From Candidatus Cloacimonadales bacterium (GTDB lineage: Bacteria > Cloacimonadota > Cloacimonadia > Cloacimonadales > JAFGVF01): a DNA stretch of 64,000 bases. Below the pieces are notes generated by a model that saw only the letters and a program-made list of their open reading frames with translations, was not told where the DNA came from and did no database searches. The translations under genes were made by a program, and so were the position numbers. Positions within the stretch are counted from its first letter, which is position 1. Every line of letters starts with the position of its first letter. Where the stretch lies: NCBI GenBank assembly GCA_963667035.1, contig OY762964.1, forward strand, positions 864,001 through 928,000. Direction: 5' to 3'. Below, in pieces: positions 1,127 through 42,608 of this stretch.

Positions 1127-1152
1127 AAGCCTGCTGTTTAGCAGGCTTTTTT
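1127..1152 (+). terminator. Intrinsic terminator after gpmA
   Basis: AAGCCTGCT-gttt-AGCAGGCTT followed by a T run. Confidence 0.85.
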
Positions 1153-1220
1153 AGGTTATATACTTTAACACATTTTTAATTTGACAGAAAGATAACATTC
1201 AATCGAATAGCATATAATTG

Positions 1221-1278
1221 ATTAGCGGCGATTTTCGCAGTTTGCTCCGCTATATAAATTTGCTAAAGTGTGCGAATA
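1221..1278 (+). ncRNA. SAM-II/SAM-V-like riboswitch aptamer
   Basis: P1 TAGCGG(1223-28)/CCGCTA(1247-52); GATTT, TTGC, ATAAAT and GCTAAA motifs in SAM-II order; TTCGCA/TGCGAA pseudoknot arm; lies upstream of metK. Confidence 0.75.
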
Positions 1279-1284
1279 TTTTTT

Positions 1285-1316
1285 GCCGACTTTAGCAACT
1301 TAAAGTCGGCTTTTTT
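1285..1316 (+). terminator. Attenuator terminator of the metK leader
   Basis: GCCGACTTTA/TAAAGTCGGC plus T6; alternative pairing TTGCTAAAGT(1260-69)/ACTTTAGCAA(1289-98). Confidence 0.85.
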
Positions 1317-1343
1317 ATTTATAAAATATAAGGAGGTCCTATA

Positions 1344-2513
1344 ATGAGTAAGGACGTGATGAATAAACCCGGAAGCTTTATTTTTACTTCCGAGTCTGTA
1401 TCTGAAGGACATCCGGACAAGGTCTGTGATCAAATTTCAGATGCGATTTTAGATGCCTATCTGACTGTTGATCCTCAAGCTCATGTTGCCTGTGAGACTT
1501 TGGCAACTGAAAATCAGATTGTTCTAGCTGGAGAAATTAGTGCTAATAGTGAACTTGATATTGAATCTATTGTAAGAAAAGAAATAGAGAAGATTGGATA
1601 TACTAAAACCGGAAAAGGTTTTGACCATAATTCAAAAATCCTTAATTTGTTACATTCTCAAGAGGGAGCATTAAAGGATAACGCAGATATCCAAGGAGCT
1701 GGTGATCAGGGTTTGATGTTTGGATATGCTTGTCATCAAACAAAACAACTTATGCCAATACCAATTCTTATGGCTCATAAACTTGTTTTGAAATTAGCTC
1801 AGCTCAGGAAAGATAATACTTTAGAATACCTGATGCCGGATGCTAAATCTCAAGTGTCTATGCGTTATGAACATAGAAATGCCGTTAATTTGGAATCTCT
1901 CATTATATCAACTCATCATCAACCTAAATCTGCTACCGAGTTTGAAGAGATGAAAGCTGAGATTTTAAGACTAGTTGTAGAACCTGTAATAATAGATGTT
2001 TTGCAAGAAAGCAGAAGAGAATTCAGTTATAATCTAAGTAAGTATGAGATAAATCCTTTAGGTATGTGGGAAGATGGTGGTCCGGCTTTTGATACCGGAT
2101 TAACAGGCCGTAAAATTATTGTTGATACATATGGTGGATGGGGAAGACACGGTGGTGGTGCTTTCTCAGGTAAAGATGCTACAAAAGTTGACAGAAGTGC
2201 TTGCTACATGGCTAGACACATAGCAAAGAGTATTGTCGCTTCTGAGATAGCTGAAGAGTGTGAAGTACAGTTTGGTTTCATTATTGGTGAACCACAGCCG
2301 GTATCAGTAATGATTGATACTTTTGGAACCGGTGATGTCCCTGAAGAAGTACTAGTAGAGCATGTTAGAAAGAACTTCGACCTTTCGGTTAAAGGAATTA
2401 TTGATTACCTTGAACTGAGGAAACCAATCTATAATCAAACTGCCTCTTACGGGCATTTCGGTAGAGATGACATTGAGTTACCTTGGGAGAAGGTTGTTCA
2501 GTTGAAGGTTTAA
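1344..2513 (+). CDS. metK: S-adenosylmethionine synthetase
   Basis: FTSESVSEGHPDK, GAGDQG and GGGAFSGKD motifs; AAGGAGG RBS. Confidence 0.98.
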   Translation: MSKDVMNKPGSFIFTSESVSEGHPDKVCDQISDAILDAYLTVDPQAHVACETLATENQIVLAGEISANSELDIESIVRKEIEKIGYTKTGKGFDHNSKILNLLHSQEGALKDNADIQGAGDQGLMFGYACHQTKQLMPIPILMAHKLVLKLAQLRKDNTLEYLMPDAKSQVSMRYEHRNAVNLESLIISTHHQPKSATEFEEMKAEILRLVVEPVIIDVLQESRREFSYNLSKYEINPLGMWEDGGPAFDTGLTGRKIIVDTYGGWGRHGGGAFSGKDATKVDRSACYMARHIAKSIVASEIAEECEVQFGFIIGEPQPVSVMIDTFGTGDVPEEVLVEHVRKNFDLSVKGIIDYLELRKPIYNQTASYGHFGRDDIELPWEKVVQLKV

Positions 2514-42204: not shown

Positions 42205-42457
42205 ATCTTCACCTTATGTTATAAATATATAACAAGATGTTAGAAATAGTTAATAATAGTCAAGAAGAAAATTATGTAATGTTTCTTTATCCTCCTGGAG
42301 ATACAATCCTTTTTAGGATATATCGGGAGTAATAAGAAGAGTGTGTAAACTTCAATTTGTTATCAAGTACTTTTAAAATGCAATACTGGGATTTGTGGAT
42401 CGTGATTTCTATAAAACATTTGACAAACAGCATCGTTAAAATATAGATGACTCAATT

Positions 42458-42568
42458 CTGTTTTCGGGGCTGGGTGAAATTCCCGACCGGTGGTAAAGTC
42501 CACGAGCCGAAAGGTTGAATTGGTGAAATTCCAATACCGACAGTTAAAGTCTGGAGGAGAGAAAACAG
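42458..42568 (+). ncRNA. FMN riboswitch (RFN element)
   Basis: TTCGGGGCTGGGTGAAATTCCCGACCGGTGGT...ACCGACAGTTAAAGTCTGGAGGAGAGAA upstream of the rib operon. Confidence 0.97.
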
Positions 42569-42608
42569 TTCTTAACTCGTTCCAAGCCCCGGTGCGAGGT
42601 TTTTTATT

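Follow-up and report, generated by a model that had tools for sequence, protein, structure and literature searches.

A SAM-II-class leader ahead of metK in a Cloacimonadota genome, with an aptamer that overlaps a predicted antiterminator

The window, by which we mean the whole 64,000-nucleotide stretch of Cloacimonadota DNA that was analysed, carries near its 5' end a metK gene that is the sole metK match in the 3.1 Mb genome. The leader described here occupies the interval between gpmA, upstream, and the metK start codon, and its surroundings contain the following features:

1127..1152, forward strand: intrinsic terminator-like hairpin closing gpmA (9 pairs, T run)
1181..1186, forward strand: TTGACA, a candidate -35 box with a weak -10 box (predicted promoter element)
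1331..1336, forward strand: Shine-Dalgarno sequence AGGAGG, about 60 nt past the aptamer and outside it, behind the terminator
1344..2513, forward strand: metK, methionine adenosyltransferase, 389 aa (TIGR01034, 473.7 bits against a cut-off of 309.4)

The hairpin after gpmA sets metK apart from the upstream genes. TTGACA recurs 42-55 nt upstream of the P1 stem in all three genus members examined; a promoter scan of the leader returned nothing convincing and did not pick this box, and its single call, at 1318-45, was rejected as no better than chance and as running across the start codon. Downstream, metK converges on an EamA-type transporter gene; a 12-pair inverted repeat in between (2533-2561) has, by eye, the look of a bidirectional terminator, although the terminator scan did not call it. 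At gathering level, Rfam recognises only one element in the whole window, a canonical FMN riboswitch at 42456-42570 (117.1 bits), and the metK leader has no match.

Beneath that threshold, the elements of a SAM-II-class aptamer can be laid out along the leader:

1223..1252, forward strand: P1 stem, UAGCGG (1223-28) with CCGCUA (1247-52), six pairs enclosing loop L1
1230..1234, forward strand: GAUUU, predicted third strand of the SAM-binding triplex (G8, A9 and U10-U12 in 2QWY numbering), placed by alignment to the SAM_alpha consensus, its role taken from PMC3764141
1236..1245, forward strand: predicted 5' strand of the pseudoknot, with P2a at CGCA 1236-39 in the preferred register and P2b at UUGC 1242-45 (U20-C23)
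1262..1272, forward strand: predicted 3' strand of the pseudoknot, GCUAAA 1262-67 (G42-A47) and UGUG 1269-72 (P2a), which doubles as the 5' strand of the predicted antiterminator

The first-pass annotation had recognised the SAM-II motif order from the letters alone, and every element that it named is present where it was placed, with AUAAAU (1254-59) completing the core beside UUGC (1242-45) and GCUAAA (1262-67). PMC3764141 lists 13 completely conserved SAM-II positions (U10-12, U20, U21, G22, C23, G42, C43, U44 and A45-47), and all 13 pocket bases are present here, at 1232-34, 1242-45 and 1262-67. Searching with the Rfam SAM-II and SAM-V models, as had been suggested, gives SAM_alpha (RF00521) as the best match of the stretch, at 16.8 bits against a gathering cut-off of 36, with GAUUU, UUGC and GCUAAAG set on consensus positions; SAM-II long loop (RF01726) is second, at 13.1 bits against 44. 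The SAM-V model (RF01826) does not match the leader even at E 10, and the SAM-I model finds nothing in the window's genome. The features that set SAM-V apart are not seen here: there is no model match, AGGAGG does not lie within P2a, and the nine-base A/U linker that follows P1 contains no hairpin that could serve as a SAM-V-type P3. Low scores are shared by other copies, since non-alphaproteobacterial sequences that match SAM_alpha reach 20.3-22 bits, and two relatives (L005 and L007) reach 29.3 and 27.5 bits on RF01726. This is a real SAM-II-class leader of known kind that scores below the Rfam cut-offs; it would work like SAM-II and agrees with the general class in those features of sequence and gene context that were compared, while no Rfam model scores it as a member.

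The same scores might be expected of a terminator/antiterminator switch that has the SAM-II fold but answers another signal, which might be SAH, some derivative of SAM, or a protein, MetK itself for example. Two further observations point that way: the base preceding UUGC, opposite A47, is U1241 rather than the A of the solved SAM-V structure (PMC6061858), and 20 of 122 copies among the matches listed stand before no recognised methionine gene. Yet the position opposite A47 varies between A, C and U among homologues and is C in the SAM_alpha consensus, none of the 13 invariant pocket positions is altered, and an OFF switch ahead of metK suits SAM, so that we consider a different signal highly improbable.

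The helices were compared in a 48-row alignment, in which 35 rows carry a GCGG/CCGC stem, most of them fixed by the search pattern, and the other 13 were hand-picked from 97 loose metagenome matches, most of those being chance. The inner four pairs of P1 form in all 48 rows, with double changes from C-G to U-A (5) and from G-C to C-G (3), and P2b is likewise pairable in 48 of 48, but its sequence is the same throughout and so offers no covariation. For P2a, a single fixed register applied to these rows gives 53.6% pairing. When six registers were compared over 93 types, the one continuous with P2b was best (0.51 versus 0.30-0.42); its margin is narrow within Cloacimonadota (0.62 versus 0.58 for UUCGCA/UGCGAA), and the three genus members form 11 of 12 pairs with CGCA 1236-39 and UGUG 1269-72, versus nine of 12 with the alternative. 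That alternative, UUCGCA (1234-39) with UGCGAA (1271-76), is the extended arm that the first-pass annotation had built into the pseudoknot. The complementarity exists, but it is complete only in the window's genome and lies two bases downstream of the better register; moreover, 146 of 2000 shuffles reach a six-base match, placing the arm by itself within chance. We have dropped it as the conserved P2a, since it fits relatives less well and its sixth pair takes U1234 from the pocket triple, although it may act as an alternative pairing in this genome.

Two further structures occupy the 3' half of the leader:

1285..1316, forward strand: intrinsic terminator, an 11-pair hairpin (1285-1310) followed by a U run (1311-16), -15.3 kcal/mol
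1260..1298, forward strand: predicted antiterminator, 1260-69 with 1289-98 (10 pairs) and 1272-76 with 1282-86 (5 pairs), -18.1 kcal/mol, z -5.9

The terminator hairpin has a z-score of -5.3 and none of 200 shuffles is as stable. It cannot coexist with the antiterminator, which shares 1285-95 with it and is built from aptamer bases. The perfect complementarity reported at the outset is borne out, UUGCUAAAGU at 1260-69 being the exact complement of ACUUUAGCAA at 1289-98, and a 10-base match of aptamer to terminator arm arises in four of 2000 dinucleotide shuffles of the aptamer.

Whether this pairing is maintained can be judged from relatives, using 82 of the 93 terminator rows among the matches listed; ten rows whose hairpin starts 9 nt or less from the motif were dropped, together with one (L082) in which the call fell on a later hairpin. 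Across 46 types, duplexes of the aptamer strand and its cognate terminator arm average -11.9 kcal/mol, compared with -6.6 for shuffled arms; the difference is significant in 30 types and the remaining 16 fail to beat shuffled arms. A permutation of duplexes among 17 groups gave 7/10,000, with the cognate arm the best partner in one group only. Anchoring on the invariant core, possible for 37 of 45 types, isolates the variable part of the antiterminator, where pairing is found in 114 of 148 cells and permutation predicts 84.8 +/- 4.8 (0/10,000), or 42 of 64 against 32.9 +/- 3.3 (54/10,000) with one row per 4-mer, counts that overstate the case because relatives are not independent. The first two variable positions are each paired in 34 of 37 types, variously as G-C, A-U, C-G, U-A and G-U. 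The covariation sought among leaders of relatives is thus found, with antiterminator pairing kept through compensatory changes, and the motif and its terminator are themselves conserved ahead of orthologous genes.

Pocket conservation, gene context and these compensatory changes together support the core of the original reading, in which a SAM-II-class aptamer shares its 3' strand with an antiterminator in a predicted OFF switch. We put at roughly 85% the probability that the aptamer core, overlapping rival antiterminator and terminator folds, acts as a kinetic, SAM-responsive OFF switch for metK transcription. When 1221-1318 is folded at equilibrium without ligand, the terminator has a probability of 0.93 and the antiterminator 0.07, and blocking the aptamer strand raises the terminator to 1.00. 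Since equilibrium favours the terminator even without ligand and does not by itself reproduce the ON state, switching would have to be kinetic and co-transcriptional. In prefix folding the antiterminator is the best fold when the transcript reaches 1298 and 1304, and once it reaches 1310 the terminator takes over, so the antiterminator prevails before the terminator is complete and the ON state would be a kinetic trap.

In such a scheme, the pseudoknot would form and bind SAM in the time polymerase takes to cover roughly 1272-1298, where U-rich sequence at 1278-84 may slow it. Without SAM, 1260-69 would pair with 1289-98 as the latter emerges, ahead of the 3' arm of the terminator, and polymerase would read through. 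With SAM bound, 1262-72 would be locked in the triplex, the hairpin at 1285-1310 would form at the U run and transcription of metK would stop, the outcome being product feedback on SAM synthetase.

The equilibrium preference also has another potential explanation, namely a terminator that is mostly constitutive, a fixed-rate throttle on metK, beside an aptamer that does bind SAM, with SAM acting on RNA stability or translation. The terminator is favoured without ligand not only here but in 62 of 81 homologues, while 18 of 81 switch at equilibrium. A precedent is S. meliloti metA, where the terminator that follows a SAM-II aptamer could not be tied to any antiterminator (PMC9373788). In addition, the read-through fold can pair the freed terminator arm and U run (1308-18) with the Shine-Dalgarno region (1328-38), a helix that would cover the Shine-Dalgarno sequence. 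A constitutive terminator, however, would not need a complement that tracks the variable 3' bases of the aptamer across lineages, and the position of the Shine-Dalgarno sequence outside the aptamer tells against SAM acting on translation. We therefore think a constitutive terminator unlikely, and retain the kinetic OFF switch.

The motif with its P1 stem and terminator occurs as one strong copy only in the 3.1 Mb genome, but an exact pattern scan of the genome_contigs collection recovered at least 119 loci. Among the matches listed there are 122 distinct ones after removal of six duplicates, of which 76 precede metK, 22 precede metY-like genes, 20 precede other genes or none and four are truncated; a loose detector places a hairpin of -8 kcal/mol or better ahead of a U run in 93 of the 122. 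The 80 titled loci among the matches listed include Smithella/Syntrophales, Omnitrophota, Gemmatimonadota, Cloacimonadota and the alphaproteobacterium Pelagibius. Viral contigs gave no match with either motif pattern, the A47G form described below included. A covariance model of the motif, trained partly on the very families it then recovers, matches 81 of 151 phylum genomes at E 0.05, strongly in 68 of 69 Cloacimonadaceae (family f4), both members of family f3 and the one genus mate sampled; weak matches of 20-27 bits in families f12, f14 and f15 were left uncounted, except that in genome G128.

Thirty MetK loci of relatives divide into nine with motif and terminator, 15 without such a leader, two with a second SAM-II-like leader, three showing none and one without a gene start. 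This second leader has a GGUAG/CUGCC P1 and an inserted hairpin, stands before a 319-aa MetK (L028, L029, L301-L306; G004-G011) and scores 27-30 bits on RF01726, where the cut-off is 44. The combination of short, divergent MetK and second leader is found in eight of eight genomes from other genera of the window's family and in none of five from two other families. In a quick MetK tree (L019 and L117 left out, L070 a faulty translation), the leader-bearing Cloacimonadota MetKs form one clade with support of 99, separate both from leaderless MetKs and from the divergent short MetK. The tree and the family distribution together suggest that metK and its leader were exchanged jointly at least once.

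Several other arrangements came to light in these comparisons. A tRNA gene immediately precedes the riboswitch-metK unit in families f3 and f4 (L003-L008, L051, L052, L065, L090); in the window's genome the unit follows gpmA. Many Cloacimonadaceae metK leaders have AAUUU in place of GAUUU, which turns G8 of the G8-G42-C23 triple into A (L273-L278, L280, L281, L283, L287, L289, L293-L296, L315). In Smithella/Syntrophales the same riboswitch stands over a very divergent MetK on a long branch (L032, L036, L038, L042, L066 and kin). Three metagenome copies with a GCGC/GCGC P1 and terminator (L199, L229, L240) have the HcyBio homocysteine biosynthesis enzyme (PF01837) downstream. Other metagenome aptamers of SAM-II-like form have a GUGG/CCAC P1, some of them in tandem, and lie ahead of non-methionine ORFs encoding unknown proteins and a MoxR-type AAA ATPase (L152, L159, L169, L174, L194, L195, L204, L209, L253, L259). 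A P1-free pattern applied to metagenomes returned mostly chance matches (32 of 96 have a P1 of at least four pairs, where shuffling gives 13.4 on average), so hand-picked rows alone were used. Finally, a tandem SAM-II-like pair on the minus strand of G128 (L317; C136, about 1750-1895), its first member with a terminator and its second abutting the ribosome-binding site, heads a gene for an orphan protein of 227 aa; the gene after that one encodes a Cap4 nuclease domain.

Some family f4 genomes carry second aptamer copies that end in GCUAAG, replacing A47 with G, a variant absent from the window's genome. Searching 232 phylum genomes by pattern yielded 17 GCUAAG matches, in 13 genomes; seven of the matches lack the 5' motif and are chance, leaving ten full aptamer copies, each with a hairpin, in seven genomes (L324-L330 and L335-L337 in G055, G061, G086, G109, G184, G185 and G186); two of the loci are tandem, both pairs in G061. 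The same pattern is absent from 151 genomes of the order on the Syntrophales side. None of the ten copies precedes metK, and A is kept in all 32 metK-linked Cloacimonadota copies among the matches listed. The antiterminator partner of G47 is C in all ten and mostly U in canonical copies, which may reflect one ancestral event. A47 contacts the amino and carboxyl groups of SAM (PMC3764141), and in SAM-V, replacing the equivalent base with inosine severely impairs SAM binding (PMC6061858).

The A47G copies head small orphan operons of genes unrelated to methionine. One small orphan protein family, whose model was built from four of its five members, occurs at five of eight A47G loci and in five of 203 genomes, always downstream of an A47G copy; a homologue search with a 328-aa A47G-linked protein returned a single match, its own near-identical record. 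Four of the eight loci adjoin defence genes; the 26 selected ORFs scanned include Schlafen-group-3 helicases at two loci, a type III restriction-modification pair, and genes of the McrBC-like and AbiEii kinds, and one tandem lies ahead of an ARPP-1 protein. These copies could be a variant class that recognises another ligand (a SAM derivative such as decarboxylated SAM or methylthioadenosine) or has been retuned to report loss of SAM, for instance to a phage SAM lyase, so tying methyl-donor status to defence islands; we offer this as a doubtful proposition. A near-identical leader that keeps A is also found away from any recognised metK (L040, L292), which makes drift or retuning as plausible as a change of ligand. 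The literature listings searched contained no natural SAM-II A47G variant, no SAM-II termination assay and no riboswitch sensing SAM lyase.

The metK switch is itself ordinary, and its interest lies in practice: with it, SAM-II reaches into Cloacimonadota and further anaerobic lineages, and the copies tested there fall under the Rfam cut-offs, so that riboswitch surveys likely undercount the class. No paper placing SAM-II in Cloacimonadota turned up in the text passages searched, and an earlier listing of the class in these phyla may exist. The A47G copies provide a natural variant at a ligand-contact position, and such changes have revealed new riboswitch ligands, a spermidine variant of a SAM aptamer reportedly among them (PMC10853860). 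With an antiterminator defined by covariation, the metK leader also offers a small system in which to study whether SAM-II terminates transcription in response to SAM, which the sources cited here predict or show only indirectly (PMC2258182, PMC9373788).

With the SAM-II metA motif (RF00521; Corbino 2005, PMC1273637; 2QWY) the metK leader has in common P1 and a predicted pseudoknot, the GAUUU/UUGC/GCUAAA order, the 13 pocket bases, a methionine/SAM gene context and a downstream intrinsic terminator; it differs in its shorter L1 and P2a, its GCGG/CCGC P1 with a one-base linker, its score of 16.8 bits, its Cloacimonadota host and its target, metK and not metA/X/Y/Z. The SAM-II long loop form (RF01726; Weinberg 2010, PMC2864571), described from Bacteroidetes and marine data, shares the core and the 3' AAAUGCUAAAG stretch, but the window's loops are short and score 13.1 bits against 44; tandem and long-loop forms are treated in PMC9481103, PMC2864571 and PMC11508383. 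SAM-V (RF01826; Huang and Lilley 2018, PMC6061858) shares the triplex pocket, but is translational, with its Shine-Dalgarno sequence in P2a and a P3 hairpin, neither of which the window leader has. McCown 2017 (PMC5473149) places SAM-II and SAM-V in one general class.

The initial view that SAM-II and SAM-V often act on translation needs correcting for SAM-II, for which these sources describe termination as the commoner mode (PMC6061858, PMC2258182). Terminators follow many SAM-II members (Corbino 2005, PMC1273637); according to Barrick and Breaker 2007 (PMC2258182), terminators are what SAM-II is most frequently associated with, by a mechanism that they had not established; and Huang and Lilley (PMC6061858) describe SAM-II as mostly transcriptional and SAM-V as translational. 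Since termination is the usual predicted mode, the mechanism proposed here is not new. Its nearest counterparts are the metXZ element of beta-proteobacteria (Leyn 2014, PMC4239095), missed by Rfam at first and later termed canonical SAM-II (McCown 2017, PMC5473149), and metZ of S. meliloti, for which Scheuer 2022 (PMC9373788) predicted termination and saw a matching small RNA. Both combine a SAM-II aptamer with a proposed terminator/antiterminator, in another lineage and ahead of other genes; the antiterminator of those systems was a matter of speculation, while the one here has covariation counts behind it.
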